Below the pieces are notes generated by a model, which did not search any database, was not told the origin of the DNA, and worked only from the letters and a program-made list of their open reading frames with translations. The position numbers and the translations under genes were made by a program. A stretch of 63,856 bases of DNA, filler included, from Tricharina praecox (Eukaryota), in NCBI RefSeq assembly GCF_024521635.1. It is 3 parts of 3 records of this genome, joined end to end, with 100 filler letters (N's around TTAATTAATTAA, not from the genome) between each part and the next. Parts side by side here need not be neighbours in the genome. Positions count along the whole stretch, not along the records: positions 25,346 to 48,759 come from NW_026250475.1; 2 more parts are not named here. One strand, 5' to 3'. Numbering within the stretch: the first letter of the stretch is position 1; every line of letters starts with the position of its first letter. Positions 27,324 to 56,141 of this stretch are shown here, piece by piece.

Positions 27324-28232
27324 TCTTTTTTTGGGTTCAATCATTGATTGCATGCGACCTATCTATATCTAGATCATGGCAATATCAGCCCGCTGACCCC
27401 CCCCACCCCCCCCCCCCCCCCCGTTCCAAGGCACTGTCCAACCCGGCTTGCACCGAGCGGCCCGATGTGGCTTTCCCTGCCCCCGCCCCGGCCTGTCCCA
27501 AAAAGTAGATACACGGTAAAGGCTGAAATGGGCCTGCATGCTCGCCCGCCCCTCCCCGCCTATCCTCTCTGCCCTACGGGCTGACCCGCCCGCTGTTCCC
27601 ACCTGCCTTTTGCCGCTCTGTTCGAGGGTTCTCCCGCCTCCTATCTGTACCTCCGTTGGATGGTTTACCGGCTCGGCTTGTTTGTGGGGTTTGCGTGCCT
27701 TTTGCGGCCTGGAGTCCCTGTTGCTGCCTATAAAGACGATTACCCAGACACCGTTCCTGCCGTGAGCTGTATCAGCGCGCGAAGGGACGCCTCCCTCTCT
27801 ACTGATTCCCACCCCTCTATTGTCCGCTTTCCCCGTCCGCTTTCTCTCAACCTTCTTTTGACGCTTCCTACAGCCTCTTCGACAACAGCACTAACGAGCG
27901 CAAGCTCGCCGCTGAGAATCGTCTCAAGCTTTTCGTACAGTAGGTTGATGTTTTCGGCAATGGTTGGCGACGCGAAAGATTCGTCGTAACTAAAGACTGA
28001 TCGATCCTCTTTCTTCATTAACTCTGAGGGCGGTGGAGGGGTTGCGGTACACTGGCGAGCCAGGTGCTCGAGGCGACCGCAGTGGTAACTATTGCGATAC
28101 ATTATTCCAAGAGTGGTAGGAATGAAGTCGAAGTAAAATCCGCGATGTGGGAATCAGCGAATAGGAACATGACACGAGCTTAGCGTCTTGGCGAAACTAG
28201 GATGCGAGTGTGTTGTAGCGGGGATCGTTGAC
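27324..28232 (-). mobile_element. Non-autonomous LINE-derived retroelement, copy 1 (~0.9 kb, ORF1 remnant, A-rich tail)
   Basis: TSD GGCCGCTCGCCGCC (27310-27323) / GGCCGCTCACCGCC (28233-28246). A7 tail. Degenerate knuckle YHCGRLEHLARQC. Homologous to 36145-37384. Confidence 0.85.
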
Positions 28233-29635: not shown

Positions 29636-31139
29636 CTTGTTTTCCTACTTCGCTACCGGTTAGAAAATAAGCAGACGGAGAGTGGAGAAGAAGGTGTAGG
29701 ACTCACGAGAAATTGTACTTGTAATCCTTTGCTTGAGCCGACTCGCAGGGAGGTGTGAGGACTGCGATCGACAAGGACGGTTATCGAGATCTAGTGGAGT
29801 GCTGCGCGGAGCAGACGAGCGTGTAGAGAGCCCAGATGTTGTATGGAATAGTCTGCACAGCTGCGCGCCTGCGTTCTGGTCGAAGATGGAGAATGATCCT
29901 TCGAAGTGAGGGTGATGATTAGTCCGTCTGGTGCCGTGGTGCATGGAGGGAAGGGGGGTGGTAAGATGAATGCGGTAGATGAGCGACGGTGGGTGGGAAT
30001 AAGGACGGAGGGTGGAGTAGAAGAAAACGTTTCAGTGAAGTCAACCTCGCTCACTGTCGCTAGTCCGGGAGTGGGGGTGAGAGCAAGATCGTGGTTGGTA
30101 ATTCAAGGGCTAGGTGATAGGAGCTACCTGGCGATGCACCGAAGCAGCACGTGTGGATACCCACACGTCCCTCTGCAAAACGTGGTGATTGAGTGTGGTG
30201 TGCATCCTGAATGAAGGAGATCTGAAATTAATACCCATATTCCCTGCGCGTGATGACTTCTTTAGACATAGTCTCTTATCATATTGACCTAAACAGTACT
30301 ACCACTACGTCATTCGCAACACGAGTGAGCGATGCCGGAGCACGTCCCAGCAGATCGTGCCACCTCCGCGCTACCATACTTCGCTAACACGCGGTCAAGG
30401 ATATGTTTGCACTACCTCGAGCCGTGCAGCCATTCACCTTCACACAGATATGGTTACTAAATATTATTCCATCGTCGTCTTTTCCGTGTCTGAATAACTT
30501 TGCTGATTTAGCATGGAGTGCTCACGTACAGGTCTGCATGCCACAGCACACCGGTGCTCCTATAAATATGATTTTGTGCGAATAACCGGTACCATATCAG
30601 AAAAAACCCACAACAGTACACGCAATGCGGCAGTTGCCTGTTCAGCTTCCAACCATATCTTTTTATTACGTGCGGTGGAGTTTCGAAATGCGACACACAA
30701 CGCGGCCTGATCAATGGGAGGGTTTCTGGAATCGCGCTTAAATAGCAATACTTATGAACTTCACTAAATGAGGTTACAGCATCAATCGTTACAACGATTA
30801 TAGTTGACCGATTGGGTAACATCACATGAGTGCCTTATTTTTTCAGCCACAGATAGTAATCTAGCGACCTCCCCGCGGATGCCACGCTGTCCTGCCCTCG
30901 GATACGACACTCTCAACCCCTCTGATTCGCCCGACAAATGATACGCTGGCTTCCGGCCTACTGAACGAGTAGCGCAATGAAGGCGGTATATGACCGTGAG
31001 TAGGAAACAGCCTACATTTCTCTGGAGGAAAGAGTAGAACGCCGGGTGGCGGTAACGATGGAGGTCATTTCGAAATACTATTATCATAATGGACAGGTTT
31101 GTAACCTGCAACCCTACTCTGCTCCCTGCACGTCACGAT

Positions 31140-34100
31140 TCACGGGAAGAGATTCGGTAGTTTTGAAGAAGAGTGATCGGAAAACAAGAAGATAAAATTA
31201 GAGTGTCAATTGCAAAAACTAATTACACAGAAAACATTGCAAAATAAAAAAGACCAAGAATCTATTCAAAACGCCTTAGATGCACCCAGCGCCTTGTGAA
31301 AATGAGGCTTCATGGTGTACTCTGAGGCATCGCCGAAAAGAAAGCCACCTTGATTTTCTTCTTCTTCATGATATTTGCGTAATGGAGGAGTGTGTTCCAT
31401 GTATTTTCACTGACGGTAACCTTTTACTCCTCAAAACTACTCACTAGATGGAACATGCCACTGGTATCGACCTCAACCTTGTTCCTGAATCCGCTAGATG
31501 GGGGCGGTAAGTGCTGAGGTCTAAAGTATATCATCGCCTCCCGGACCGCGGAGTCCGCCTGCTCGTCCACTCGAAGCTCCATCATGGCGGCCTGCTGTGC
31601 ATCGTCGAACGTCGTCGAAACAGGCACCTCCGTCCGTGGGGCAGTGATCTGACTCTTGGAGTACGAGCTGCCAATCGCAGCCCCTGCCAGGCGGGCATCC
31701 GCGGCGGCCCGGGGCCGCAACTCTCCAGTTACCACTGTTGTGGCAGCACTACCACCATACGTGCAGTCGGCATTATTGCCGGCAGAAGTGCTGCTGCTTC
31801 CCTGAGCAGCAACGCCACTTCCCACAGGTCCCGAAAAAGGGGACAGTCACCGCCAGCGGTGACTCTCTGCCTCGTGCCCGGAGCGTAATGCTACGATGGG
31901 CGACAGGGCTGTACTGCAAGCAGATTTGCTCCTCATCACGATCCCCAACAGGGCAGCCACGGCTTTCGGCATGACTCCCTACCCCCACAGATATGGGAGT
32001 ATTGCCGCGATTAAACAAACCCGACCATCGTCTGAGTCCAAACCGCCGTCAGCGACCAAACCGTCGTCAGCGACCATATCGTCGTCAGACCTACACGGCG
32101 ATTAGCGGGCCGAAGAAGTGTAATTGATCGTGTCATAAACAACTTACATATGTGCGATTGAGCTGCTCATCGCGTGTTGCGGGCGAACAAAAAGGCCAAT
32201 TCGATGCCTTCCTGAGCCGAAGAAGATGAAAAAGAAGAAGAGACCAGAGTCAGAGGTTGATGACGATTGCGGATTCAGGGTTTTGGTTGCGAGCTCGAAT
32301 TTGCGTGCTTTCATTTTGGATATACCTTTGCCATTTCTTTCTTCTGCTTGACATCGCCAATCATTCTCGCCACCATCTTCGCGCTGATGTTTCGGAAGTC
32401 GTCCAGCTGTTCTTCCAAGACCTTGTTGATACGGAGCGCAAGGCGTCAAGCAAAGAAAGGTGGAGTGGAGAAGGGGTTTGACTCATCACGGGCCCTAGAG
32501 GGGAAGCCACAGCTGTCGCCGTGGCCCGCTACTTCCACGGTTGTGGGAGTAGCGCCGCAAGAGCGGAAATGGATTCTGAATCCAAATCTAGGTGTAACGA
32601 TGGACATCGTCCTACAGAACGATGCCATGCGCACCCCGAAGATGGTGCCGTACGGAGCCGCTGTTGCTGTTGTAGCGACGGCGCTTGTCGACACAGTACT
32701 TGCACTCCCAGTGAGGTTGGCACTTGACCGTGACAGGGCCCCCGTGCTGCCAGATGGCAGACGTCAGCCTCTGCCCGCTTGTGGTTTGCACAGGTGCCGG
32801 TTCCGGAACGGCCGGGGGAGGATCATCCGGAAGGGTCGGGAGCCTGTAATACAACAACTTGCACAAGGCGTGATTGGGCGGGCTCAATAACATCTCCAAC
32901 CGAAAGTTTGCTGGCTCCCAGATGTCTGGTAGCGAGTGTTGCTTGAGTAATTCGCCCTCTCCCACGACCAAGCCTCTTCCTCATCACGGGCCCCAGAGGG
33001 GCAACCACGGCTTTGGCCGTGGCCGGCTACTCCCACAGCTGTGGGAGTAACGCCGCAAGACTGGCAATGATCACCAGCCGTATCGATGGTGAAACATCCT
33101 TCTTGTAGTACCCCACTGAACAGGCAATAGTTAGTCAAGCACCGAGAGAAATACGAATCGGTTTGGAAAATGAGGAGCTCACTTACCTCTCGAGTGTATA
33201 GCTCTCACCTCCGCGGTGGTGCAACGCAAGGCACAGTGGCACGTCGGAAAGATGCAAACTGAAAGTACCATCACTAATCAGTATAGTGAAACGATCATAA
33301 CATATGCGATGGAGAACCAACGAATCATCCACGTACCGCATAATCAACGGCCCAGGAAGGCAGGCTATGGTCCAAGTAAACGTTCCAGCCGATGGAAACG
33401 CTTACATGGGGCATGGCCGCGTTTGCAACAAAGGATACACTTCAGTGCCAGTGGCGACGTACAACTCTAATGCAGAAGGTGAATTCTCCATAGAATACCT
33501 TGAATATGGTCTAGGTGATGCGTGTCAGTCACTATCCACTTGCAGATGACTGGCTGGAACAGGTTGGAACACGGCTTCCTTGCCAAGAGCGAGACATATG
33601 GGGAAGACGGTGAAAGATGTGAAGTGAAACAGGAAGGGATATGAGATGGCTTACTATTCAGTATAGGATCGGGGTTGTAACGCAATATAGTGGTGTTTTT
33701 TATGATTCGGTGTTGACGGGGAGGATGTTGATGAAGTGGCGGAAAACGAGGGTAGGGGAAAAAGAAGGTGGCGGAAAAAGAGGGTAGCGGAAAGATGAGA
33801 AGGACGGAGCAGAGGGGTGAACGAGGAAGTTCTTAGTGAAAAAGATGATGAGAGGAAGAAGTAGCAAGATTGATTGGAGGAAGAGATGAGGAAAGATGAG
33901 GATTAAGGAAAGGAAGAGGCGACGACTAGTGGCAGGAAGAGGCACCCTTTAAAGAAATTACCCGAGGAGTAATTTCGCCGACACTAGTAGGGTTATGCAA
34001 CTTGTGAAGTGAGTACCGTGGAACTTTTAAGACCGTCGATTTTAGGGCACGGAATAGAATATTGGACCGTTTGGGCGGGGGAGTGAGACAAGTATCAAAC

Positions 34101-34160
34101 CATCCGCCGCCAAACATGCGTAACACGTCACTGATTGTGTCATCGCCTATACCATGAGCG
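31140..34160 (-). ncRNA. Unit A: candidate spliced, structured lncRNA locus (or decayed gene), inverted paralog of 39720-43025
   Basis: Shares upstream/promoter block, internal module and 3' block with unit B. Canonical-looking introns 33336-33274, 33186-33116, 32147-32091. No long sense ORF. Three tri-hairpin modules. Confidence 0.4.
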
Positions 34161-36144
34161 GGCGCAGTAAGCTGCTACCAGCCAGTAAGGCGTGCAAAGT
34201 TTTCCCGCACTTTAAGCAACTGATTGGACGAACGCCATCACAATCAGCGTAACACCCGGGACTGTTAAGGATGATGCGACCGCGTCCTGTTGATTTATCT
34301 TACGTGTGTATCCCATAGTAGCAATTGTAAATCTACCACGCTCTCGCTATTCGTGCGGAAAGTTCATATCTAACTGTTTCCCATCATGCTGTCGAATCCT
34401 GTTTCGCATCCACGATAATCGCGCTAACACAGATCAACCACTGTTCCCAATCGATCCCATGACTATTCCGACCGATTAGCGATCATCATCACCGTCCACC
34501 ACTCGTTCGCGCAGCTACCGCGGTCCCGTGTTGTGTTGAAGACTCGAAGATGCGTTCGCTCGAGTCTGGTTAGGCTGCATGACAAATAAACTGAAGATCT
34601 ATCTTTCTCTCTGAAATGTGGGAGTTGCACGCGAACTTATCAGCTGCTGCAAGCTCTTATCATGCTGCGTCCCGTCCGTGTAAATGTACGCGTAGACCCT
34701 GTTTTACGGGCAAACGGAGTGGGTGCCTGGTGCAGCATCGAAAGAGGGGATGACTTCGACATGTCCGTCAACCCCAAAGCAGGAGCAGACACAGGCAGGC
34801 TCGCCACCACCGTCTTGTACGAATATACGGGCACGATCCGGTAGTGGACCAGCTCATTAATACTGACACATAATATCAGTCTCCCAAGAGCGGCCAGTAG
34901 TGACAGGTGGAGTCAGCGAAGAGTGCGATGAGCAAACCCGTCATCACCGTGCTTGGGAATCAGGGACAGACGGAGAAAACGGTGCATCTGATCGCGGCAC
35001 GAGCGCTCGATTGCGCGCTCACTAATGAAGACGAACTTCCGGACCAGCTCCACGCCAGCTGAAGGCTTGACACCCTTAGGATACTAAAGTTTCCCGGATA
35101 TATGTCAGACGCAGACCCAAGCTGTCGGCGACAACAGTGTCTAGCTTGACGGCGCTGTATAGGTTATTTACGACTCCACTAGGCGGCGACAACGCCGCGT
35201 CCAATGATCTCCGACCACCGGCACAAGAAGCAGCGGTTGACAAACGTTCCGCCCTGTACAACCTGGTCAGAGGCATCATCTGGTTGCACGGACTCATCAG
35301 GATCGATGAAGAAGATGCCTCACGACATCCCATGCCCCGGCAAGAAGTAGCACCCTCCAATCCGTGCAGCATGTCGCTGCCATCCACCGGCGGCAGTCTG
35401 TGATCGCCATAGAGATTTTATGGTTTCGGACTCACAAAGTCACTCCCAGAAACGCAAAGCGCGACAAAAGATCGAAGTTTGCAGCCGACGACCTTAACGC
35501 CGGCAGTTTGCGGTGAATGGTCCCTCCACTCGTCATTCGGTGCATAACTGAGCGACAACCACCCCCTTCGCGAGCATACTTGTAAAGCGGTGTCACGGAG
35601 GCCATTGCCAAGGAAGCGGGGGCATAACTAGACCAATAGACATCTTTACGCCCGTTGCGAATGTTGTCGATATACGCCTCGCACCTGGTAGCAGCCTCGC
35701 GATTGATGCCCCTGTGGGGCTGTGCAGACAAGCTAATCTGGGCTCCTCTATGATGAACGGTGTGGGCAGGCGGTCCCGCTGGTCGCTGGGCAGGACGCCG
35801 TAAGTAAGGCGTCCGCGCGCGAGGAGGCCCGATGAAGCGGAAGAGATACAGGTGAAGAGGAGGTGAGAGAAGGATGAGGGCGGGGAGCACGCGGATCCTC
35901 CCGGTCACTCCCAGCTTTCCACATTAGACCCTCCGAATGATGTCTGCGAGTGTAGGGACAAGCAACGCGGCGGATCTTGATATAGACGTTTATTTTACTA
36001 GCTCATACTTGATCTGGTGTGCACTACATGTATCTCTGTTACCGGTGAAGACGGAGGGCGGGAAGATCTTCATCATCAATTCTCACCAAAGTCTGGCTGA
36101 ACAGTGAATGTTGCGATTCTCGGGCGGAACGATCGAATGATGGA

Positions 36145-37384
36145 CACGATCCTCACTACAACACACTCGCATCCTAGTTTCGCCAAGAAGCTAAGCGCGT
36201 GCCGTGTTTCTATTCGCTGATTCCCACATCGCGGATTTTACTTCGACTTCATTCCTACCCCTCTTGGAATGTCGCAGCGCACCTACCACAAGTGCGGGCG
36301 CGGCGGTCCACCGCCTCCCCTCCACCGCCCTCAGAGCCAATGGAGGAAGCTGATCGTTCCGGCCGTGTCTACAACGCGTCTGACCATGTCTACGACGCGT
36401 CTGATCCGTTGCTGATCGTTGCCGAAATCCATCACCTGTAGACAAACCTGTTCGCAAACCTTCAGACGATGTTTCGCCAGGAGCTTGGGCTCGTTAGCGA
36501 TGGTGTCGAAGATTCAGCAGGACGCGTCAGAGAACTCGTATCCGCAGTACGAAAGACGCGACAAGAGACAAGGGACCTCAAAGCCCTTATGGAGACGATG
36601 AGTGAGAAGATCGACAAACTCACAGAGGAGAACCGGGAACTCCGGGCGCAAACACAAGCAGTGACAGCTCCACAGCCGCTTCCGCCTCCTCCATCGACAC
36701 CACTTAAGCGGCCAAAACGGAACCTGACGGGACCTCAAACACCCCATCAGCCGACGAAGCAGCTGAAGAGTACCTCCCCGACATCGGTTCTCATGCAGTC
36801 GGAGCATGCCGGTGTGAGTACCGAGCCCACGCAACCACTACCGTCAACATCGGCCGCGGCCCCCAGGTCCGCACCTCTCCATGGTGAGATGGAGGAGAGA
36901 TGGAAGAAAGTCGAGAGGAAGCGAAAAGGGAAAGGGGAGGGGAAGAAGAGAGGGGTGGGACTTGGAAGAGAGGGAAGTGTCTCGCCATGGGCTGATATTG
37001 CTCGCGGAAGGGGCGGCGTGCATGTGACCGTCTTCATCGGCGAGAGCAAGAACGCCAGGCGGTAAAAGGCACCCAAGCCCCATGTAAAGGATTCGGAAAA
37101 CATTCGAAAGAAGGAACAGAAGGCAAGTGGGAAGAGCGGGCGAGTCAGCCCGTAGGGGAGAGAGGAGAGGTGGAGAGGGGCGGGCGGGCATGCTGGCCCA
37201 TTTCAGTCTTTACCGTGTATCTACCTTTTTGGGACAGGCCGGGGCTGGGGGGCAGGGAAAGTCACATCGGGTCGCTCGATGCATGTCGATTTGGACAGTG
37301 ACGTGGAAACAGGGGGGTGAACGGGGTGATATTGCTATGATCTACATAGGTCGCATGCAATTACTGAATAAACAACAAAAAAAA
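36145..37384 (+). mobile_element. Non-autonomous LINE-derived retroelement, copy 2 (~1.24 kb) with truncated ORF1/gag-like coding remnant (36469-37065)
   Basis: TSD GATCGAATGATGGA (36131-36144) / GATGGAATGATGGA (37385-37398). AATAAA plus A-tail at the 3' end. Coiled-coil, basic patch and SPWADIARG motif reminiscent of Tad1-like ORF1. No RT. Confidence 0.85.
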
Positions 37385-39916
37385 GATGGAATGATGGAAC
37401 GACGGAATTTCATTGTTTGTCACTCGACTTGTGCAGAGTATTCGGGCAGAATATGCGGGCAGATTGGTCATGTTGGTATTACGCACGCGTCTTGAGAATC
37501 CTCTTTATTCTCATACCTGCTCTTTCTGCTTCTGTCCAGTATGTCTAGCTGGTCATCCGCTGTGTTTTTGCGAAACAGTCAAGCAATCGAACATCACACT
37601 CATATTTTCTCAACAGTGAAGAGTGGATAGGAGACGGCTGTTCTATTTTCATGATCCAGATGATACTGTGCAAGCACTCAACATTTCACAGGCAACAGTC
37701 AAAGATGGTTGGGTGGACTCGCGGATCTTGAGACGGCGTTGGGTACTCGAAAGAATGAGTAATAGTGGAGTCGAGCGCCGGATATTTACCTAATGACCGT
37801 TCACGTTCAGGGCAGCTGGTAAAAAAACGACGAACACCCTGATTACGCATCAAAAGATGCAACCGTAGAAGCGTTGGCACATTCTGGATCCGTAATTGCA
37901 GCTTTAGAGGAATATATACTCAAAATTCACAATGCGGGTCCCCTAGCCACCGTCTCCATCACCGTCGGCATGTTTTGCGCCATCGACAATAGTAGGATTC
38001 CCTTTTCCGTGTAAAACTCGGGCCTACCCACCTTTGTCCCCCTGTACCTCATCTTGACTGGCGGACCGGATATCTGTCGGTAACGTGGTGTCGCTCTCGG
38101 TGAGATATCCTTACGTAGTCCCGCCGCAGCTGATCGTGTGTCACGGGAGTATTGGATTTTCAGGTGCAGGCAGCAGTGTGATCGAACGTAACAGAAGTGC
38201 TAAAGCTAGTATCTAGCAGAGTAGATGTTAGATAGTGCATAAAAGTAATGATGGTTTTACTTCGGAGGAATGCTTACCAATACGCGTCTCGGGAATGTCG
38301 GTGGTAAGTGTGAGCGCTCCAGGAGTCACGACTACTCGCGGAAATGATTCGGTGCAAGAGTCGCAGAATCGATGGATCAAATGGATAAGGGAGATGCCTG
38401 TCACTCGAATTCCGTTAACCATCACTATCACCCCCGACGTGATTATCATCACGGGCCAACCCCAAACGACGCTCGGCTGGAAGCGATGTAATCCGGGTTC
38501 AGGGCCATGATCTAATTCCGACGAGCTAATGGATATTGGATGACCCTGAAGCTGATCCACAAACGTAACCACCTCCGTAGCACTGAGCCGTCACTCTGCC
38601 TGCGGAGGTTTGAGGTCTTTCTGTTGGCGTCGCCCGATGATCAGTGTAGGAGGTGGTTGGTTGATGCACGTATGTCCGGAGGCGGATGAGAATGGATGAC
38701 GTCGGTATCTATGGTACTGTAGCGGGCGTATATGCTATCCTAGAAGGTCGTCTTAATCATAACGGAACGCATAAGAGCGAAGACACAAGACCTGAAAGGT
38801 GATGGGTACTAACAGTCATGGTTTAAGCGATCATGAATTGTCCGTCGCACTCATGTCGCGTGTTCTGAAAGCAGGTCTGGGATGCATAGGATGTATAAGT
38901 GCTTTGATAGGTGGACAATGCCGCTCGTCTACGTCGGCAGATGCAGCTTTAGGTAACGGAACCCGTTGCGCGAATATAGCTAGTCGGTGGCGATTCTGCT
39001 ATCTTGCTATCGAACCGTGTGATCTGCTTGTGTTGCCGAGCTCCGACGACAGACAGCGGTAGGGAATAGGAGGCAGAAAGGTTTGCAAGACGAGGACCTA
39101 GGTTTTGGGTGAAATTATATTTGGCCGAGGAGTGAGAAATCAAAGGGCTAGAAGGGTTCAGTTGCCGATTTTGTTGGAGCCTGGCACTGGACTGCTTGGA
39201 ACCGAGCGACCGCAACTTCGTCAGGTCATGACGTAACATGGTAAATGCAGTGTTTGCGATCTTGTCTTAGCTTATCCAGAGATTGCATGGCGTGAATCGG
39301 AACATGGCACAGGAGACATCAGCTGAAAATGATCGTTAATACATCTCTCCCCATGCGGTGATCGTGCAGGTTCGTATTCGTCCACTCTTGACTTAGCGCT
39401 CTATTGTTAATACTCATCGGAGCCTGCAACCACAACTAGACTGTAACGCAGAAGGCAATGTAATTAACTGTGTATGCATCTCTATTGTCAACAAACGTAC
39501 TACAGATTGATCACACAGCATGCCGTTGATCAGATGCCCGAGAGGTTAACAGTCGTGGGTTGGACAAATGTCGCAACCGTGAATACACACTGTACGCATC
39601 TTCGTCTGTTGAGTAATAGCACATGACTCACCAGAATTGCGTCGGCGAAAGGCCGGCGCACCAAAAGTAATCTCATCAACCTAGTCGCTGCGAGAAAATC
39701 GCGCAAACACTCACAAGTCACGAGCATGGCATGTAATCAGTGAAGTGTTATGCCTGTTTGATAACGGATGGTTTGATGCTTTTCTCACTCCCCGTCCAAA
39801 GGGTTCAACATGCTATTCAGTACCCTAACATCGACGATCTCAAAAGTGCCACGGTAATCACCTCGAAAGTTTCATAACCCTACTAGCGTCGGCGAAATTG
39901 GTGCTCGGGATTGTTT

Positions 39917-39922
39917 TATAAA
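39917..39922 (+). promoter_or_regulatory. TATA box of unit B
   Basis: TTTTATAAAGGG followed by a CT-rich tract. The counterpart in unit A is TTTAAAGGG (minus strand, ~33945-33953). Confidence 0.5.
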
Positions 39923-40494
39923 GGGCGCCTCTTTCTCCCACTCGTCCTCCTCTCTTCCTTTCCTTCATTCTCATATTTTCTCATCTCTTCCTCCAATCCA
40001 TCCTTCTCTTTCCTCCTCCCCTCCTCTCCTTCTCTTCTCCACAATACGTTTATCCAAATCAACTTACGGTATGCACCCCTCTCTACTACAACACCAACTT
40101 GCACCTCTACACCCTGCTCACTACAACCTACACCATTTGACCCCTGTTCGCTCCACCGTTCAGCATACAGCACGTCATTGCGACACAATTGCTCAAACCA
40201 CTAACAGCGCCCCAGGTACCGCAAGCACCATCCTCCAAATTATCGAGTGCAGATCAGCGCTCCGCACGCTAAGATCGTCAGATACACAGAGGAAATCGAG
40301 ACCGCGGCTCACGAAGGCGCTCACCCCGACGCGATGATGAATTCAGGGTGGGTGTGGCTGCTCCCGGTGCCGAAGGAGGTCATCCGAGATTTGGAGCGCG
40401 TGACGAAGTATCGGCTAGTCGGAAAGAAGTGTTGGGAAGCGACGAGCTAATCAATGTCAACGATTCGCCATTGGATGATGGATTCGCGATCGGA

Positions 40495-42590
40495 TCCGGC
40501 TTCGGCCGGCTACATTTCGCCACCACTAGGTGGCTCCATTTGGCACAGGCTGTGATGGCTGTGCCTCTACTTCTCTCCTGGGGTAATCCCATGATTCCGG
40601 GGCTTGATACCTCGGCTACAGAGACGTAGGTTCACTCTTCTCTATCTCTGTCAGTCTAAGGATGATACTAACTGATACTAACTGATACCGGCGTCCAGGG
40701 CCCAGTGGAGGGGTAACCTGAATGGAACGCTGCTCATGGAGAGAAGTCCGTGGCAGCGCAGCCTTTCAACGTTCGCGGAGCAGCTCTCAACAGAGTTGAT
40801 TATGTGGCGAGGAGCGGAAACTTCGAGGCTAGGCGTCAAAACCGGCAACCCGTTCAACAACCACAAGGAGTACAAGGGACAATATCAGTACCTGCGCCAC
40901 AGGGGCATTCAGCGTAGCATTCACATGGAGCGCCGCATGGACTCCAAGGGACACCATCACAACTACCGGCGCCACAGGGGCCTCATTCGTCATCCTCCAT
41001 ACCAGCACCACAGGGACTTAACGCATCATCGTCACCAGCAGCCGCCCCTCTGGAGCCCGTGATGATATGCACTCTTGCGGCGCTACTCTTACAGCTGTGG
41101 GAGGAGCGAGTAATGGCAAAAGCCGGGGCTGCCCCGCTGGGGCCCGTAATGAGGAAGAGTCTTGGTCGTGGGAGAGAGCCCATCACTCAAAGAACACTCG
41201 TTACCAGATAACTGGGAGCAGCAAACCTTCGGTTGAAGTTGTTGTTGAGTCCCCCCGACCACGTCCTGACCACGCTGGTGGACCACAGGGTTCCGACCAC
41301 GATGGATCCACCCGCCACATTTTACTTCTCGTCTTTACCTCGTGCTGTTCTTACCACCACCTCCATCCACGAAGACCAAAGAAGATGTCGGCAAGCCTCT
41401 GGTACGCGTACAATCTAGTACCCCTAGTAACGAATCCCGGTCAGCGATCGCTCGCACAGCAGCGCTACGACCATGTGCTCACCAATTGGTGGCTTAGTGT
41501 GGGATTATGGAAGAGAGGACTTTATTTTACACCATGAAGCCACAGGGTGGTCCGGCTTATGCCGGCGACATGTCGCCACCCATTAGTGGCTGGGTGTGGC
41601 ACGGGCATTGATGCCCGTGCCTATCCTTTTCTTGTGGGGAAAGATTTCCCCCCTAAGAATACGTCGTCCGGCTTCGGCCGGCGAAATCTCGCCACCGATC
41701 GGTTGCTGGGTGCGGCACAGGCAGTGATGCCTGTGCCTATCCCCCTCCTGTGGGGTAATCCCTATAGGAGGAGATTTTGTCCAGCTTATTCCAGCGACAT
41801 CTCGCCACAAATTGGTGGCTGAGTGTTAGTACAACGCCTTCAAGACGCCAATAACTCGGCACGACTAGCTGGTGACCCACAACCACAAACATTACCCCAA
41901 GTTCTACTTCTCGTATTCGCCCTCCGTTGTTACCACCTCCTCCACCCACGAAGACCACAGACGATGTCGGCAAGCCTATGGTACGCGTACAATCTGGGAC
42001 CCCCAGAGACGCTGCCGGGTCAGCGATCGCCCGGACAGCAGCTCTACGACTACGTCCTGGCCAATCATATAGACGTCCCCTGGGTCCATCATTTCATTGA
42101 TGGGCAGAATACCGCTACGCAAGCCCCCTAGCGGGCCATGCTTGAGGACACTAGGTATGTACAGACAAGTAACCGTCGCCCGGACGGCGCAAAGCTAACG
42201 CACATCTATAGCAACCACTTCCATATCACCGCGCGGTTCTCGCCGGTTGAAGTGGATGTTCACCGGACGATCATCACCACCTTCATTCACCGGACTTCCG
42301 GTTCGCGCCGGACGCATCTCGCCACCAATTGGTGGCTGGGTGCGGCATAGGCAGTGATGCCTCTGCCTATCCCCCTCTTGTGGGAAATCTCCACAGGAGG
42401 AGAAGTCGTCCGTCTTATGCCGGCGACATCTCGCCACTAATTTGTGGCTTGGTGTGGCACGGGCATTGATGCCCGTGCCTTTTCTCTTCTAGTGGGGAAA
42501 GATTTCCCCACTAGGGAGGATGTCGTCCGGGTCGGCCCGGACACATCCTGCCACCGGTTGATGGCTGGGTAGGCTCCATACCCATCAGGC
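40495..42590 (+). repeat. ~112-117-nt structured repeat, 7 complete or partial copies starting near 40495, 41550, 41666, 41779, 42296, 42408 and 42525
   Basis: Full units contain CCGGC-loop-GCCGG, GCCACC-N4-GGTGGC, GGCACRGGCA-KTGA-TGCCYGTGCC and a long CTCCTGTGGG...CCACAGGAG hairpin. Confidence 0.9.
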
Positions 42591-45546
42591 TTTAACCGCC
42601 AAGGTGAAATACTGGTGGGTCCGAGAGAGCGAGTTCCCCTTCACCTAGCGGGTGGTAAAGGGCAATGCAACCCGAAGATTTCGTGTTCGGGAACATGGAG
42701 CCCCGACTGCAAAGAGGTAGGTTCACTGTTGACCATCACACACCTATAGAGAATGTTACTGACTGATACGTAATCCAGGGCCCAAAGGATGGGCGAATAT
42801 GGTGACGTCTGTAGGTTCGACCCGCATGCGGCTATGGCTCATAGCTTCGGACGCCTCCACTTACATGATCTGCCTTTTGTTTATCTCCACACGTTTATAT
42901 ACGCTCTTCGTCTATTATATTCTGCTTTTTGTTTTGTTTAGTTGTTAATTGCAATCGATGTGTCTTCTTTTAGGTTCTGGTTTTCCGAATATGCTTCTCT
43001 GAAGCGGCCGAATCTCTTTCTGTGACTTTCGGCTAAACTATGCGTGCGCAGTGGGCTCAACATACCCATCATGCGTAATGATTTGCAGAGCCACAACTTG
43101 TTGCCATTCCGCCTCCATGAGCCACAATGCTTACTTCAGCCCATACTTTAGCCGAGAAACGGCGGAAAAAGCAACACTCATTTGTGCGTACTCTACAGTA
43201 AACACCCCGGTGAGTCGCCTACACGGTTAACCCGGCTGGTGAAGCTAGATGGCGGCGACTCCTTGATGTTAGGCTAAGGGTGTCGAGCGGAAAGGGTGTG
43301 CCATGTGGGCGGTAGGAAATATAGGAGTTACGTATGCACTCGAGTGATCTGATGGCTGCTTCTCTCCGTTTCGTGCCGCCCGGTTCGGCGCGATTAATCA
43401 ACGCGCAATGTACCCACTTCATGAGTGCCTGTGGGTTGGTATGCAGCGGAGACCAAATATTCCGCCCCATACGCGGTGTACAGCGACTATCCTCCACAGT
43501 GCTACGGTTCCTACATGATAGTGCCTACTACTCCCTACTCGAATTTAACGGCAGACGATGATCGCTGAGATTCCATGGGACGGCGGGCCTGTATTCCCCC
43601 GGACTCTAGGGATCCGGGCGGGTTCATCGCCGCACAGAAGCTGGGAGCCCGGACATAAACTCCCTTAAACGGCAGCTGTTTGTTTGGTGTCGATCAAAAA
43701 GCGAAAACACCATTGTCGCGCATGCAGGTGCAGTGAGGACAATGGATCGCAAGTGAACGGAATGACAATGATACAACAGAGACCCAAGCTTTCGCTGATT
43801 AATAACGACGAGTTTTATTGCTCTCGACGTCGCACGGCGCCCACACTATGCATACTTCCCAAACGTAGCCTCCCTGACCCGCAGAGTGGTCGGCCTGGGG
43901 GTATACGGCAGCCTAACCGTAAGTTTTTTCGTTTCTTACCGGTATAAAACAAGGCTTAAGCACACGGCAGTGAAGATCCTGACCATGCAGATCCCGGAAC
44001 ACTATGGGATAAAGCAAAATCTTATCCGGACTCCGAAGCCGGAACTTTAGTAGCCGATGCGGTCACAATAGTCCTCCCGCAATAAATAAATTCTCCTTGC
44101 CCGCTGTCACCCGGGGTACGTATAGTAATGGCTCGGAGATTATGTTGTTTTAGTTTTCGTACTCCGCATTGGAGTTTTCCAGGCGCCATTCGAGCACTCA
44201 GGCTACGTCTAACGCTGCGGGATATCGAAGTCGCTTACTCGTAGCGGAACACGATTGTATCACTGACCCAGAAGCCGCGACGGAAAGAAAGGTCTCTCCT
44301 GCTGCCGAGCTGTCATCGTGAGGATAATCGTGTAAGACCCGCCGATCCCTCCACTTGCCCGGTATGGGAAGGTGCACTCGATGGGTCGTGTTTGCAGTAT
44401 ATTGTTCCCGGCATATTGACTTGCATCATGCCACGCAGAAGCCCGAAGTTCCCGGTCTGATGGTCCTGTGGATAGTGTACCTCAATGACTTCCTCGCGAG
44501 GTATCTCTAAGTGAGGCCGGACGCGCGGTGAACCCGGAGTTGGGATGTCTGCTGAACCTGTCCATCTCAGTTCCAAACATCAGTTATTTTCTAGGTGCAT
44601 GGTGAATCCCACGACGTTTAGGAGAAGAGGAGTTCGCGTAAATCGCTGCAGGTTTGCTTAGGGTGCTGACGGCTCCAACGAAGAGCTTCGCGGGTGTGAC
44701 GATGGCCCTCGTCGTCGCCAGATTTGATATCTTAAGATGCGCGATGCGAAACGATATTGCAGGCGAAATCGGAGCAGTTTGAGCGATCTCGCGGAGGCGA
44801 TCTCGGAGGTGGACTGCGACATCTCGTCGTAGTGTTCGTTGTTCGAGTGGTTGAAGTCGTTACTGGTAAACTGGTTGTGTCTGCGGCTTAGCCGGGAACG
44901 AAAAACTCTTGCGGCGTGGTTCGCCACAGTCTATGATGTTTCACGTACCCATCGTCGACTCGCGCGTGAATAACACCAGGCCTCCCTCCCCGCGGGTACT
45001 GAAGTCTCCCCGAAACGTCTCGCCGATATTAGCAGTACATTTATGTCTTCCCTATACCTGATCGTCACTGCGGGGCTACTATCTGATGTCCGGGGTGCGT
45101 GGACCTGCAGCAACCCGACCTCGCTATCCGCGATGACTGCACCCAACATTTTCGGTGTTGTTCCCACCGCTTCCGGGAACCCATCACGTTTCGCTATAGC
45201 AACTTCGGAATTTACTCTTCACCGCCGAGACGATCCCCGTATCCTACACACTACATTCATCAACGAGCGGCTCCTTCGCCCGTCAAGCCGCTGGATCCCT
45301 CCGCCGCATCTCGCGCCGCTGCTCCGTCGTACCGCTCCCTTGACAGAAACGAACGGTCCGTGATTAACGTCAATATCGGCACCGGAAATGGGGCGGCTCA
45401 TTGGTGATGTGGCAGGTCCCGTGATGGCGATCCTGGTGCACTACGGTGATAGGAAGGCTACGAAAGGTCAATGCTAAAGTGCTATGGAGAACTGTCGAGA
45501 GGTTTCATGATGATGGTCTGCTAGACTTCAGCAGCTCACTGAGGAG

Positions 45547-45562
45547 GTATATAACCCCCCGC
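45547..45562 (+). promoter_or_regulatory. TATA box of the GH7 gene with an adjacent CreA-type SYGGRG match on the minus strand
   Basis: GTATATAACCCCCCGC about 110 nt upstream of the ATG; reverse complement contains GCGGGG. Confidence 0.45.
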
Positions 45563-45663
45563 ACTGCTACTTAGTTTTCTATCCTTACCAACCCAACAGT
45601 CCTTCATTCACCGGTATCATCCTCACGATCATTCAGCGTCCTTTACATCTTCCACTCTCCAAC

Positions 45664-47095
45664 ATGTTCAACAAGATCGGCCTCCTCTCTTTGGCCCTTG
45701 CCACCGTCGTCTACGGCCAGCAAGTCGGCACTCTCACCGCCGAGAGCCATCCCTCGCTCAAGGCGCAGAAGTGTACTTCCGCCGGCTGCACCACTGAGTC
45801 CACCTCAGTCGTCCTGGACGCCAACTGGCGCTGGCTGCATACCACCTCCGGTTCCACCAACTGCTACACTGGCAACACCTGGGACACGTCTCTTTGTCCT
45901 GACGGTGCCACTTGCGCCGCGAACTGCGCTCTCGACGGTGCCGACTACTCCGGAACCTATGGTATCAGCTCCACCGGCACCGCGCTCACGCTAAAGTTCG
46001 TCACTAAGGGAACCTACTCGACCAACATCGGATCCCGCGTCTACCTCCTCGAGAGCGACACAAAGTACAAGCTGTTCAAGCTCAAGAACCAGGAGTTCAC
46101 CTTCGATGTCGATGTGTCCAACTTGCCCTGCGGACTTAACGGCGCGCTCTACTTCTCGGAGATGAAGGCTGATGGAGGCTTGGCGGACTACCCCACCAAC
46201 AAGGCCGGTGCCAAGTACGGAACCGGTTACTGCGATGCCCAATGCCCCCATGACATCAAGTTCATCAACGGAGAGGTAAGTCATATTCACGTTCTACTCC
46301 GGGCCTACAATTACTAATTATCCTCGCCGACAGGCAAACGTGGAAGGCTGGGAGCCCTCCGACAACGACGCCAACGCCGGCTCGGGCACCTACGGATCCT
46401 GCTGCAACGAGATGGACATCTGGGAGGCGAACAGCATGGCCGCGGCCTACACCCCGCATGGGTGCACGAAGTCCGGCCCCTACCGCTGCGAGGGCACTGA
46501 GTGCGGCGACGGCGACGAGCGCTACTCGGGAGTCTGCGACAAGGACGGGTGCGACTTTAACAGCTACCGCATGGGCGACACGACCTTCCTCGGCAAGGGC
46601 AAGACTGTCGACACCTCCTCGAAGTTCACCGTTATCACCCAGTTCATCACCGCCGACAACACCACCACTGGCGACCTTGTGGAGATCCGCCGCGTCTACG
46701 TCCAGGGCGGCAAGGTGATCCAGAACTCGAAGGTCACCCTCGCGGGCATGGAGCCGTACGACTCGGTGACCGAGGACTTCTGCGCGGACCAGAAGACGCT
46801 CTTCGGCGACACCAACGACTTCGCGGTCAAGGGCGGACTGGAGACCATGGGCAAGGCGCTCGAGAACGGCATGGTCCTCGCCCTGTCCATCTGGGACGAC
46901 CACGCGGCAAACATGCTCTGGCTCGACTCCAACTACCCTCTCGACAAAGACGCCAGCGAGCCCGGTGTTGCCCGTGGCGCCTGTGGAACCGACACCGGCG
47001 TTCCTGAGGACGTCGAGAGCGCCTCCCCCAACGCCTCCGTCACCTTCTCCAACATCAAGTACGGTGACATCGGCTCAACCTACGCCAGCACCTAA
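45664..47095 (+). CDS. cbh1: GH7 cellobiohydrolase I, secreted, no CBM1; exons 45664-46275 and 46334-47095 (457 aa)
   Basis: Signal peptide then [26 protein letters not shown], catalytic [27 protein letters not shown]...CTAAT...CAG intron. Confidence 0.97.
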
Positions 47096-48759: not shown

Positions 48760-48859
48760 NNNNNNNNNNNNNNNNNNNNNNNNNNNNNNNNNNNNNNNNN
48801 NNNTTAATTAATTAANNNNNNNNNNNNNNNNNNNNNNNNNNNNNNNNNNNNNNNNNNNN
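48760..48859. other. Artificial contig linker (44 N + TTAATTAATTAA + 44 N)
   Basis: Identical to the linker at 25246. Confidence 0.97.
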
Positions 48860-51800
48860 GTTGGCGTGGGTTCCGATTGTCCGAATCACACGGTAGGGAC
48901 CATGATGTTTGTTTTCCAGCTTGCGACTGGGTCTCTCGGTGCGCCAGTTCCGACCATCCACCCATACCATGTCGCCTGGTTGGAAGGCTGGCGCAGGGGT
49001 TCGGTGTCGTTCGGAGTCGTCCTGTTGCCGTGCCTGGGCATACCGCATTTGGCTGCGGGCGACGTCGTGGATTTGATGCAACCGTTCCGCTGCACTCTGA
49101 GCTTGATGTTCCTCCTTGCTGTCGACACGGATATCCAGCTCAAAGTCACACCGTGGGTGGTATCCTAGGTTAGCGAAGAATGGCGACAGGGTAGTCGTGT
49201 CGGAGACCTGGTTGTTGCCAGCGAATTCGGCCATGAAGAGGTAGTCGACCCAGTCATCCTGGAGGTAGCTGACGTACGCGCGGAGGTGCTGTTCCATGAC
49301 GGCGTTCATCCGTTCGGTTTGGCCGTCGGTCTGGGGGTGGAAGGCAGTTGACAGGCGTGGCTCGATCTTGAGGCATGAGCATAGGTGTTTCCAGAATCTC
49401 GAGGCAAACTGGGGACCCCTGTCCGAGACGATGGTATTTGGCAACCCTGGTACCTGAAGATCCGGTCGCAGAACAGCTCGGCCAGTCCTTCCGAGGTGAT
49501 GGTCGTGGTACATGGTAGGAGATGGCGTTGCTTGGTCAGTCGGTCAACAAAAACACAGATGGCGTCAAACCCCTTTGAGGCCGGTAAGCCAGTGACAAAG
49601 TCGACTGAGATGTGTTGCCATGGCTTCTCGGGTACTGGGAGGGGGCGCAGGACACCATAGGGTGCGTGCCGGGTGGCCTTGGTTTGTCGGCAGGTGTGGC
49701 AGTTTCGGACAAACTGGTCAACGTCCTTTCGCATCTGTGGCCAGTAGTACCTTCGAGCAAGTAGTTCCAGGGTTTTTGCGCGCCCTGGGTGCCTCATGGT
49801 CGGTGGGCCGTGGTGGTCCTGGATCAGTCGTAGTCGGAGTCGGTCGTACTCTGGAACATAGAGGCAGTCTCGGTAGATCAGTCGCCCGTTGACTTCGCGG
49901 CATTCGGCCAAGGAGATCTCCTTCGAGTGGCGTGTACCATTTCGGAGTAGCTCGAGGATTCGATTTGGGACGGGGTCTATGTCGTAGCCCTCTGTTATCA
50001 GTGACGTGAGGAGGGGACGGTGTTGTTCGGGTTTGTTGGTTGTTGCCAACCGGAGCTCTTCCGGTAGGTTGTCCGGTTTCAGGACCGCCTGCTGGTTGGC
50101 AAGCAATCTTTCATCCCCTTCTTTAGGGAGGTCTCCTGACCTCCTGGTCAGTGCATCCGGTTTTCCTCCCGCTTTGCCTGGTCGGTAGACAATCTTGAAA
50201 GGGAAACGGGAAAGGAACTCTGACCATCGCGCTTGTCGTCGGTTAAGTAGTTTCGTTGTCATGAAATACTCCAGATTCTTGTGGTCGCTTAGGACTTGGA
50301 TGGGGTGAGGAGCGCCCTCCAGATGTGGTCTCCACTCCTCAAAGGCGCGGACGATTGCGAGGAGTTCTTTGTTGTAGATCTCGTAGTTGCATTCTGCCGG
50401 GGAGTGTTTCTTGGAATAGAATGCCACTGGGTGCAGGATTCCCTCGTCGTCGTACTGAGATAGGACGCCGGCAGAGACGTAGCCGGAGGCGTCAGTTTCC
50501 ACTACTATCTGCCGATCGTAGTCGAAGTGCCGGAGGATCGGGGCCGAGGTGAATGCTGTTTTTAGTTCGTCGAATGCTTTCTGCTGTTCCGGTCCCCACA
50601 CGAAGGGAACATACTTTCCATCCTCCTTCTTGGTCAATGCTGTCAATGGGGATACCACCTTGAAATAGTCTTGGATGAATCGCCGGTAGAAGTTTGCAAA
50701 TCCCAGAAAGCATTGCACATCGGTGACGGTACTCGGCTCCTCCCATTCCAGTATGCAGGAGACTTTCGCTGGGTCCATCTTGATCCCGTTTGTTGTAATG
50801 ATCAGTCCCAAATACTTGACTTCTGTCTGGTGGAAATGACATTTTTCGGGTTTGAGATGTAGACCGGCTGCTGATAAGGGCTGAAGTACTTTCCTGACAT
50901 GTTTCCGGTGTTCATGTAAGGATCCGCTGTAAATGAAGACGTCATCGATGAATGCGGTACAGAAGTCTTCGAGGAACGGGCGTAGCACATCGTTGATCAG
51001 AGCTTGGAAGTCGGCAGGGGCGTTGGTGAGGCTGAAGGGCATGACGAGGGATTCGAAGAGCCCGTAGCGTGTCCGGAAGGCAGTTTTCCACTCTTCTCCT
51101 TCCGCCATCCGCACAAGGTTGTAGGCACCGCGGATATCCAGGGTGGTGAAGTATTTCGCCCCGGATAGCCGCATCAGAGTTTCTTGGAGGAGTGGGAGTG
51201 GGTACCTGTTCTTGATTGTTCCTTCGTTCAGGCCCCTGTAATCCACACACAGGCGTAGGGAGCCGTCCGATTTCTTGACAAACAGGATTGGCGATGCTGC
51301 TGGAGAGGAAGAGGCACGGATGAAACCTTTGCTAAGGTTGTCGTCAAGCCATTCCTTCAATGCGACAAGCTCAGTTTTCGAAAGTGAGTACAGTGGTCCG
51401 TATGGGGGCGTAAATCCCTCCTTGAGTGGGATCTTACGGTCTTAGTGTCGGTGCGGTGGCAAGTTCTGGGCGAGGGCTTCAGAGAACAGCGGTAGGAACT
51501 CGTGATATTCGTGAGGGATATGTGCCGTGGGGTCCTTGTTTCCTTCCAGTGCGCCGTTGACTTCGGCAAGAGTGGTGTTGAAAATCGTAAGGCTTTCCTT
51601 GCTGACCAGTTCTTGGAATGACTCCATCCGTAAGGCTGAGATTCTGACTGTGGTTTCCCTTGAAAGGTTAGTGCATTCTTGGTGATTCATCCTTGGGGGA
51701 GACGTAATGCAGCGGGCCACGATGTCGCCGGCCCCCGCGCTTACCGCTGGCTTCTCCTGAGCTGCTTTTGACGCGAGAGCATAGGTAGATACGTCAGGTG

Positions 51801-55496: not shown

Positions 55497-56141
55497 TGTG
55501 AGACTGGAACGAGTTTGCGTCGTCGGAGTCTATGGTAATATCGAGTGTAGAATAAAAGTCAGGGATTTCGATAATTCACAACGGAATAATCTTAAGGGTG
55601 TTTCTTTGATGGTTTTTTCGGTGCGATGATTGTAGTTTGGTATGGTTGCCCGCTCGGTTCGACTTATAGTCGTTCCGATCCTCAGCACGTGATTTCTCTA
55701 GAGTGCGGCCTAACGTAGCTCCGTTGCTTCCTTTGCATCGGAGTTCCGCGGCCTAGCCTCGAGTCGTCGTCAGCTCTCTTCGGATAGTCTTCTCGACTAG
55801 GCAGGTGGTAAACACCACGCGCCCAAGATAGATTGGAGTTTCCGAGCAATTATCTCCCTCATGCGCCGGCAGAGTTCTTCGCTCGAAGTTGTCTGCCCCC
55901 ATCGGTCGATGTTCGATTCTCTCGTCATAACAGTTTTTCCCTGGATCGGAGTTCCTACTGCGGGGCCCTATGAACGGAGATCTCAAAGTCCTCTGGACTG
56001 TTATCCCGATCTCCCGCATCTCCGATCACTGTCTAGACTCTGGAATCCGTTTGCTCCCTCCTTCCTATCTTGTCCTCGATCGCCTCCAACTATCCTTTCG
56101 GCTCGCAACTCTATTCCAATCACCCGGACTATGTAATCACA
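55497..56141 (-). repeat. Solo LTR of family B (645 bp)
   Basis: Reverse complement matches 62194-62883. TGTGA...TCTCACA termini. Confidence 0.92.

Follow-up and report, generated by a model that had tools for sequence, protein, structure and literature searches.

Two inverted paralogous units in Tricharina praecox, one a spliced transcript with duplicated hairpin modules, and their possible descent from a small zinc-finger gene family

The window analyzed here is a stretch of 63,856 nucleotides (nt) from Tricharina praecox (GCF_024521635.1), made of three parts joined with 100-N filler. The DNA is nuclear and comes from a filamentous ascomycete in the Pezizales. It contains two related units in inverted orientation, units A and B, both of which lie inside the part at 25,346 to 48,759 (NW_026250475.1). 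A sequence-only reading had described them as inverted paralogs resembling spliced RNA polymerase II (Pol II) transcripts with no long open reading frame (ORF) and had taken them for a divergently transcribed pair of long non-coding RNA (lncRNA) genes evolving by module duplication, rather than an ordinary pseudogene. Here we describe the two units, the spliced RNA of unit B, and the homology of both units to a small family of annotated zinc-finger proteins.

Units A and B and their shared blocks

The units and the blocks that they share are as follows.

31140-34136, minus strand: unit A, with promoter block, three c modules, a CCHH zinc-finger-like ORF, and 3' block; limits set by homology
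39735-43025, plus strand: unit B, the four-intron, apparently non-coding, transcribed paralog; limits set by homology
33835-34136, minus strand: 5' block of A, with ~180 nt of upstream sequence, TTTAAA at 33953-33948, and a CT-rich leader
39735-40035, plus strand: 5' block of B, with TATAAA at 39917-39922 and a CT-rich leader
32834-33074, minus strand: internal block of A, holding a c module and the start of the family-homologous frame
41059-41298, plus strand: internal block of B, paralog of A 32834-33074
31140-31270, minus strand: T-rich 3' block of A, 68% identical to that of B
42894-43025, plus strand: T-rich 3' block of B; the last RNA contig stops at 42878

The three blocks are colinear between A and B, and the inverted paralogy is far above chance. 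With relaxed blastn scoring, the 5' blocks (34136-33835 and 39735-40035) were 80.5% identical over 302 nt, the internal blocks (33074-32834 and 41059-41298) 79.3% over 241 nt, and the 3' blocks (31270-31140 and 42894-43025) 68.2% over 132 nt (E = 3e-14). Standard blastn of A against B gave two matches, one of 286 nt (81.8% identity, E = 4e-65) and one of 211 nt (82% identity, E = 8e-47), and the Smith-Waterman score of the 3' blocks was 58 versus 20.6 +/- 2.5 (maximum, 29) in 50 shuffles. Repeat finding recovered the inverted arms 33835-34080/39790-40035 (246 nt, 80%), 34071-34136/39735-39800 (66 nt, 82%), and 32914-33074/41059-41219 (161 nt, 82%). The promoter 27-mer singled out in the sequence-only reading lies at 33997-33971 on the minus strand and at 39873-39899 on the plus strand, followed by TTTAAA and TATAAA, respectively, and then by the CT-rich leader.

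Between the blocks, the interiors are unalignable, the best local scores being 21 versus 20.9 +/- 1.5 in shuffles and 29 versus 24.4 +/- 2.8. The unshared interiors measure 760 and 1023 nt on the 5' side of the c-containing block and about 1.6 kb on its 3' side. No copies of the shared blocks besides those in A and B were found in the 64-kb window, and the promoter 27-mer and a degenerate 27-mer of the c module matched no locus in metagenome scans. Alignment of A with B and the shuffle controls thus bear out the earlier description of inverted paralogs with alignable flanks and divergent interiors, including the shared upstream block, the TATA-like box, the CT-rich leader, the internal module, and the T-rich 3' block.

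The RNA of unit B and its hairpin modules

Contigs from several sequencing runs were aligned to positions 30500 to 43500. Run X1 is of the DNA type, and X2 and X4, from two studies, are RNA-like; their RNA label was a guess in the run search, and we take them for RNA on the ground that four GT-AG introns are missing from their contigs. A further run, X7, behaves like DNA, since it covers intron 3 of B unspliced. The DNA-type run contains 96% of the sampled words of B, and two small RNA-like runs contain 48% and 25%. The introns of B are listed below.

40069-40215, plus strand: intron 1, 147 nt, GTATGC..CTAAC..CAG; skipped in an X4 contig (shorter side, 85 nt)
40626-40698, plus strand: intron 2, 73 nt, GTAGGT..CTAAC..CAG; skipped in a 1027-nt X2 contig; paralog of intron 4
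42155-42211, plus strand: intron 3, 57 nt, GTATGT..CTAAC..TAG; skipped in an X2 contig (side, 83 nt)
42717-42778, plus strand: intron 4, 62 nt, GTAGGT..CTGAC..CAG; skipped in X2 (side, 59 nt) and X4 (side, 28 nt) contigs

All four predicted introns are skipped in RNA-like contigs, and all have GT..AG ends and a CTAAC or CTGAC branch site; the four that the sequence-only reading had foreseen in B are therefore confirmed by spliced contigs in two runs. The X2 and X4 contigs differ from the window by at most one letter over at least 2.3 kb. Contigs of the RNA type span 39983-42878 in pieces, starting 61 nt downstream of the TATA box, and in X2 and X4 the cover of the non-repeat spacer and of the outer flanks beside B is zero (bins 37444-39613 and 43086-43500). 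The DNA of X1, by comparison, yields a single colinear contig of 3372 nt over 39331-42683 with none of the four splice joints. Because the introns are skipped, the DNA contig is colinear, and the flanks of B are uncovered in the RNA-like runs, spliced RNA is the only sensible reading: B is a TATA-preceded, multi-intron, really spliced transcript. A single G>C difference between RNA contig and DNA was seen in B, and editing of stop codons from adenosine to inosine was dropped as an explanation.

For unit A, no spliced or RNA-type contig was listed, a result that carries no weight on its expression. The only exact contigs on A come from X7. The best candidate intron, predicted by pattern scan at 33116-33186 on the minus strand (GTAAGT..CTAAC..CAG), is unspliced in the lone contig that spans it, from X7. 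The scan gave seven overlapping hits at five acceptor sites on the sense strand of A and one hit on its antisense strand; it is not specific, as the same pattern gave five hits at three acceptor sites on the antisense strand of B. The view of both units as spliced transcripts thus holds for B by its contigs, and in A the introns are predictions. Divergent transcription of the pair was not upheld, there being no RNA-type contig on A. A repeat insertion separates the 5' ends of A and B, which are 5.6 kb from each other and thus have no bidirectional promoter in common. Within A, 32326-32441, which encodes a helical-looking short frame ending at GT, is matched at ~90% by an X4 contig and by a second X1 contig that agree in five variant letters; outside the window there is therefore another paralog of this segment, which may be expressed.

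The repeated modules of the two units are located as follows.

32980-33061, minus strand: c copy 1, ~82 nt
32482-32563, minus strand: c copy 2, in unit A
31932-32013, minus strand: c copy 3, in unit A, the most diverged
41072-41153, plus strand: c in B, with a partial c 3' end upstream at 41040-41065; retained in an RNA contig
40491-40599, plus strand: m1, four consecutive hairpins, exonic
41547-41655, 41663-41771, and 41775-41831, plus strand: m2, m3, and partial m4, in tandem; an X2 contig covers 41515-41754
42293-42401, 42405-42513, and 42521-42580, plus strand: m5, m6, and partial m7, in tandem; an X4 contig covers 42407-42714
41320-41471, plus strand: D3 repeat copy 1, 83% identical to copy 2
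41902-42050, plus strand: D3 repeat copy 2, paralog of 41320-41471

The c module (~82 nt; three in A, one in B) is predicted to form a closing stem around three hairpins. The m module (~110 nt; types a and b of the sequence-only reading) is predicted to form four consecutive hairpins and occurs in B only, in five complete and two partial copies. Neither was found elsewhere in the 64-kb window. In B, a D3 repeat followed by an m array occurs twice in tandem as a super-repeat (41320-41830 and 41902-42570), and a duplicated exon-intron-exon piece has given rise to introns 2 and 4, both copies of which are spliced. B has thus grown by internal duplication of hairpin-rich modules, and the proposed evolution by module duplication is borne out for this unit; the counts agree with the statement that different modules have expanded in the two units (c in A and a/b in B). 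The modules are exonic and are retained wherever RNA contigs reach, namely, in m1, c, m2, m3 (41663-41754 only), m4, m6, and m7; m5 lies outside the listed RNA contigs.

The m sequence itself shows UUCG and GUGA tetraloops, and the modules contain perfect palindromes of 16 to 24 nt. Eight of the 12 perfect hairpins in the window (stem of at least 8) fall inside the units, which make up 9.8% of its length; the total of 12 was judged to be no higher than in shuffles (6 to 11). An Rfam search of 31000-43200 gave no match at E<=1, the sole gathering-level hit in the window being U2 at 429-625, and ARAGORN found no transfer RNAs (tRNAs). A small nucleolar RNA host gene (no C/D or H/ACA match), tRNA-like punctuation (wrong arm lengths, ARAGORN negative), and a telomerase RNA (no basis beyond CCCTA in the promoter) were dropped as candidates. 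Fungal introner-like elements, which the cited passages describe as structured, multiplying introns (PMC3609843), are similar in that ~100-nt strongly folding repeats lie inside a fungal gene and two introns of B are paralogous. As far as those passages go, B differs from them in that its m and c modules are exonic and retained, its intron paralogy stems from a duplication that included the exon flanks, and its copy number is low.

No credible long ORF is apparent in B, which looks non-coding. The spliced RNA was modelled at 2762 nt; the frame that starts at its first AUG (40334) has 38 amino acids (aa) (40334-40450). Over the three frames there are 20 ATG ORFs of at least 25 aa, the longest of which (156 and 144 aa) each lie behind several upstream AUGs, and one of these two begins inside a hairpin. 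The longest stop-to-stop frames of A have 140, 122, and 121 aa; the lack of a long sense ORF in either unit was therefore correctly noted before. Mismatches by codon phase are flat both between the internal blocks of A and B (17/17/15, in a block that also has a 1-nt indel) and between the D3 repeats of B (14/16/17). Codon-usage log-ratios per codon were 0.28 to 0.64 for six bona fide ORFs of the window (leave-one-out) and -0.14 to 0.05 for the four ORFs of B with at least 94 aa; the 38-aa ORF scored 0.23 but is short and noisy. B shows a flat codon phase and a codon usage unlike that of the window genes.

Zinc-finger homology and proposed history of the units

Two stretches connect the units with a protein family.

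32612-32980, minus strand: finger frame of A, a 122-codon CCHH (BED-like) ORF with a TGATGA double stop directly upstream
41156-41322, plus strand: remnant of the family segment in B, split over two frames and interrupted by TAATGA, additional stops, and a 1-nt deletion; found by hmmsearch and tblastn

The A ORF contains the motif W..HG...W.C..C...H....H, in which the spacing W-x-C-x2-C-x15-H-x6-H is read directly. It matches Pfam zf-BED (PF02892) with an E value of 0.0035 and 17.8 bits, below the gathering cut-off of 20.6 bits, and this sub-threshold match was the only one obtained with Pfam for 13 ORFs in and around the units. A phmmer search with the A ORF against 1.84 billion representative proteins gave six matches at E<=0.001. 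The top four are T. praecox hypothetical proteins of 141 to 228 aa, P0001 to P0004 (E = 7.8e-27 to 5.2e-10), and tblastn aligned 65 aa of the A frame with one T. praecox protein at 74% identity. A weak match (E = 6e-4) was to the bona fide multi-BED protein P0006, whose own zf-BED match has an E value of 1.6e-24. In the ESM Atlas, one family member has as neighbours small clusters from Ascomycota, of whose members 41% and 13% carry zf-BED (score, 0.91), which is a lead only. A PDB profile search gave no hits at E<=10, and the AlphaFold model of the A ORF (six sequences) was unusable, with a mean predicted local distance difference test (pLDDT) value of 40.2.

P0001 to P0004 share an N-terminal domain of ~70 aa, a 'VVGEGGLL..S.P.NW' stretch, and the finger. 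P0001 and P0003 keep both Cys residues and the first His pair (P0003 scores 14.3 bits against zf-BED), and P0002 and P0004 have lost ligands. The four vary widely in length, and three of them are on contigs of the same length, presumably a single contig; in that genome, too, this family may be in decay or in part wrongly modelled. A profile of the four proteins (hmmsearch) matched A in one open frame (score, 144; E = 1.6e-45) and B at 41182-41322 (E = 8e-6) and 41156-41257 (E = 3.8e-4), in different frames with stops. Profile positions 1 to 75, which correspond to the N-terminal domain, matched nowhere in the window, and in B there was no tblastn match past '...DPPAT', where the finger should start.

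On these comparisons, the units appear to descend from a small zinc-finger gene family, at least as annotated; B is a frame-broken derivative, and A keeps the finger frame only, without the N-terminal domain. The phrase "rather than an ordinary pseudogene" is contradicted in part by the homology of the internal block and the A ORF to four annotated T. praecox proteins and by the broken frame of B. The intact homologs encoding a conserved protein that would argue against an lncRNA pair are present in part, as four annotated T. praecox homologs.

Our preferred reading, to which we give a probability of about 0.5, is that A and B are old duplicates from a small gene family and that B, derived from a pseudogene, is a non-coding Pol II transcript that is spliced and has expanded by internal duplication. 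The two would stem from an old duplication (~20% divergence), in head-to-head orientation, of one gene from a small Pezizales family that is restricted to this lineage. In the annotated members of the family, a CCHH BED-like zinc finger follows an N-terminal domain; the ancestor was presumably protein-coding. The N-terminal domain would have been lost in both, A retaining the 122-codon finger frame and B a frame-broken remnant, so that A appears as a diverged partner of B with a surviving finger frame. B would have kept a working TATA promoter, the CT-rich leader, and four efficiently used GT-AG introns. Because promoter, leader, and introns are kept and the frame is broken, its product would be a spliced Pol II RNA, 2.5 kb or more in length, that no longer codes for the family protein. 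Its body would have been enlarged by segmental and tandem duplication of palindrome-rich pieces, namely, m, c, the 150-nt D3, and the exon-intron-exon piece. The RNA of B would need no trans function; we lean modestly toward a tolerated relic over a selected RNA, and the hairpins probably owe their persistence more to inheritance from a palindromic founder than to selection. Of the lncRNA interpretation, the spliced, non-coding nature of B stands, and the divergent pair and the exclusion of a pseudogene are not supported.

B resembles unprocessed transcribed pseudogenes in keeping introns, in having a frameshift and stops, in domain loss, in its flat codon phase, and in being transcribed. It differs from them in that A and B are largely unalignable while three blocks are kept at 68 to 80%, in its net growth by module amplification, and in that no intact parent copy was identified in this genome. 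Gene-to-lncRNA transitions are well described in mammals. The closest known pattern for B, as far as the cited passages describe it, is the route from gene to lncRNA exemplified by Xist, an lncRNA derived from the protein-coding Lnx3 plus repeat-derived tandem arrays (PMC2430539, PMC12101419, PMC4316772). As in that description of Xist, the promoter and exon-intron frame of B would come from a coding ancestor, its protein homology is fragmentary and frame-broken, it is spliced, and its body is enlarged by tandem hairpin-forming modules. By the same account, B differs from Xist in that its repeats come from duplication within the gene and not demonstrably from transposons, its host belongs to the Pezizales, and its ancestor family is tiny and uncharacterised. 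Literature searches on Pezizomycetes lncRNAs and on fungal lncRNAs with repeated hairpins found no relevant precedent.

If the pseudogene-derived origin is correct, B would offer a clean, datable fungal case of a gene turned into a spliced non-coding transcript, in which one copy keeps a protein frame and the other is caught growing by hairpin-rich duplication. The route from gene to non-coding RNA is familiar; the repeat content is unusual. The four annotated T. praecox "proteins" are flagged here as a family that may be partly mis-modelled.

Several observations weigh against this origin. The protein status of the T. praecox models rests on annotation, and the AlphaFold pLDDT of the A ORF is 40. 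The finger frame of A is open and, over the 65 aa mentioned above, 74% identical to a T. praecox protein, so A may not be dead. The promoter of B and the splice signals of its four introns are intact and only spliced forms were seen, a state equally compatible with a selected RNA and with a young relic. The interiors of the units have no residual similarity, which plain duplication with neutral drift at ~20% does not predict; large replacements are needed, or selection on the three kept blocks. Finally, the modules favour pairing on the transcribed strand: the minimum free energy of the sense strand is below that of the antisense strand in all 10 modules, the consensus energies (sense versus antisense) are -53.6 versus -44.9 and -40.7 versus -19.4 kcal/mol, and G.U-bearing pairs outnumber A.C-bearing pairs by 25 to 7.

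Alternative readings and genomic setting

The strand bias of the modules is also what would be expected if B, and perhaps A, were a selected structured-repeat lncRNA, its ~80- to 120-nt multi-hairpin modules acting as platforms to which proteins bind or being processed into small structured RNAs, and changing in number by duplication. We regard this as possible but clearly less probable than the pseudogene-derived origin. B is transcribed and spliced at all four introns, and its modules are kept in the mature RNA contigs. The folds of m2, m3, m5, and m6 have z scores of -5.8 to -10.3 relative to dinucleotide shuffles. Paired cells amount to 87% and 91%, as against 39 to 52% with slid partners, and the m alignment contains seven pairs with double-sided changes. 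The UUCG and GUGA tetraloops and the location of 8 of 12 perfect hairpins within the units point in the same direction. However, the number of double-sided pairs in m was reached by 42 of 500 column shuffles, so that covariation is not significant, and c has no double-sided pairs and a paired share that was reached in 175 of 500 shuffles. Polarised transitions in stems comprise 22 that keep pairing versus 16 that break it, in addition to 30 transversions. Conservation in stems versus unpaired positions is 0.75 versus 0.67 and 0.79 versus 0.66 (Fisher p, 0.38 and 0.24), and the structures were derived from these same few copies. The Rfam search gave no family at E<=1, and the metagenome scans gave no relative outside the window. 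The evidence for selection on pairing is thus weak. Because the shuffle controls are unbeaten, the stems are barely more conserved, and the structures are self-derived, we hold RNA-level selection to be somewhat less likely than inheritance of a palindromic founder sequence.

A more speculative extension, which we consider doubtful, is that B, possibly together with A and the T. praecox loci at present annotated as small proteins, might represent a Pezizales family, so far undescribed, of spliced lncRNAs that arose from a BED-like zinc-finger gene. The amplifiable c modules (~82 nt, a four-way junction folding only on the transcribed strand) and m modules (~110 nt, four hairpins with UUCG or GNRA-type loops) would then form an array of protein-binding or processing sites, as do the Xist and NORAD repeats. 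If the modules are selected RNA units, a tractable, culturable ascomycete would become available for studying the origin and binding of lncRNA repeat arrays.

It is unlikely that the units still encode proteins or peptides, with A encoding a short zinc-finger protein (~94 aa from an internal Met, or through an unrecognised exon structure) and the RNA of B giving small peptides such as that of the 38-aa ORF. The 122-codon frame of A is open with an intact CCHH and is 55 to 74% identical to T. praecox proteins, but it is preceded by TGATGA, with no start or acceptor joining an upstream exon. Its mismatches between A and B at codon positions 1/2/3 (16/9/9, small numbers) show no third-position excess, and its codon-usage score is 0.065. 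The first ORF of B has the score of 0.23 given above, though short, and aligns loosely with the N terminus of the family (M..GW.W...VP..I.R), yet only at E = 52, a mere lead. Several AUGs precede every longer ORF of B, and the N-terminal domain of the family is absent from both units. An ORF of 140 aa toward the 3' end of A (31424-31846, minus strand), which has no Pfam match, shows intermediate codon usage (0.17, with -0.40 and -0.36 in the off-frames); it may be either a relic or a still active exon belonging to something else. Excision of c modules as a means of joining frames was dropped, the module length being out of phase.

BED fingers are typical of hAT transposases, and the units could in principle be non-autonomous or decayed hAT-like elements, the BED-like finger being the DNA-binding head of a transposase and the palindromic modules subterminal binding repeats or insertions resembling miniature inverted-repeat transposable elements. 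The A ORF may resemble zf-BED and the N-terminal fingers of hAT transposases in its pattern W..HG...W.C..C...(15)...H....H. Its weak zf-BED match, the zf-BED share among the ESM Atlas neighbours of a family member (41% and 13%), the perfect 16- to 24-nt palindromes, the repeat-rich region, and extra contigs of 90 to 95% identity in X1 over 32236-33103 (depth ~11.6 versus ~7) would fit such an origin. However, the A ORF scores below the gathering threshold, lacks a PDB match, and has no transposase body, and B has no finger match; no catalytic or dimerisation domain of a transposase was found. The terminal inverted repeats and target-site duplications that the sequence-only reading had named as marks of a transposon were looked for at the unit ends: inverted repeats were not above chance (7 versus 7.1 +/- 1.3 and 6 versus 7.6 +/- 1.3), and there was no target-site duplication, the flanks being unrelated. 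The modules occur nowhere else in the 64-kb window, B is one colinear X1 contig with a depth of 7.42 next to a 3' flank at 7.19 to 7.24, and the units have a promoter, a leader, and spliceosomal-intron architecture. We consider a mobile element an improbable source of the units. Least probable is an inverted-repeat locus in which read-through RNA folds the 80%-identical blocks into imperfect double-stranded RNA for RNA interference: inverted arms of 240 to 300 nt with ~80% identity do lie 5.6 to 8 kb apart, but arms of 80% identity are poor Dicer substrates, the RNA contigs are unit-length, sense-spliced exonic pieces of B only, and no RNA-type contig covers the non-repeat spacer or reaches A.

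A repeat of ~1.3 kb lies between the units at 36145-37445 on the plus strand, with a 207-aa coiled-coil-like ORF at 36442-37065 and an inverted partial copy at 27416-28228 on the minus strand (73 to 94% identity). Many contigs of 90 to 95% identity stack on it, the RNA-like runs have very high word depth around 37329-37379, and one X1 DNA contig skips 36145-37445 and carries 26 other letters instead. It has the look of an expressed element, mobile or repeated, that is present in multiple copies and has inserted between A and B. The window contains 176 N, the first at 25246; if they form a single run, probably one gap in the assembly, it would end at 25421, and statements on repeats or synteny across 25246-25421 are unsafe.

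Elsewhere in the window, genes split by introns encode an OPT transporter, a Timeless-domain protein, a DUF676 protein, and a GH7 cellulase. The nearest named proteins to the OPT frame are from Wilcoxina mikolae (80%), Geopyxis carbonaria (76%), Rhizina undulata (71%), and Pyronema domesticum (70%). A complete U2 spliceosomal small nuclear RNA gene lies at 429-625 on the minus strand (136.7 bits, E = 9.7e-28; Rfam). The nearest clear gene downstream of B is the GH7 cellobiohydrolase at 45514-47095 on the plus strand, in two frames (Pfam E = 9e-92 and 2e-116). Units A and B stand at the edge of a repeat-rich stretch in which retroelements span 48.8 to 63 kb. At least two bodies of the Ty3/gypsy type, with reverse transcriptase, RNase H, integrase, and gag domains, are present at 48812-57109 (minus strand) and 58762-62052 (plus strand), and one of these consists of frames split by stops.

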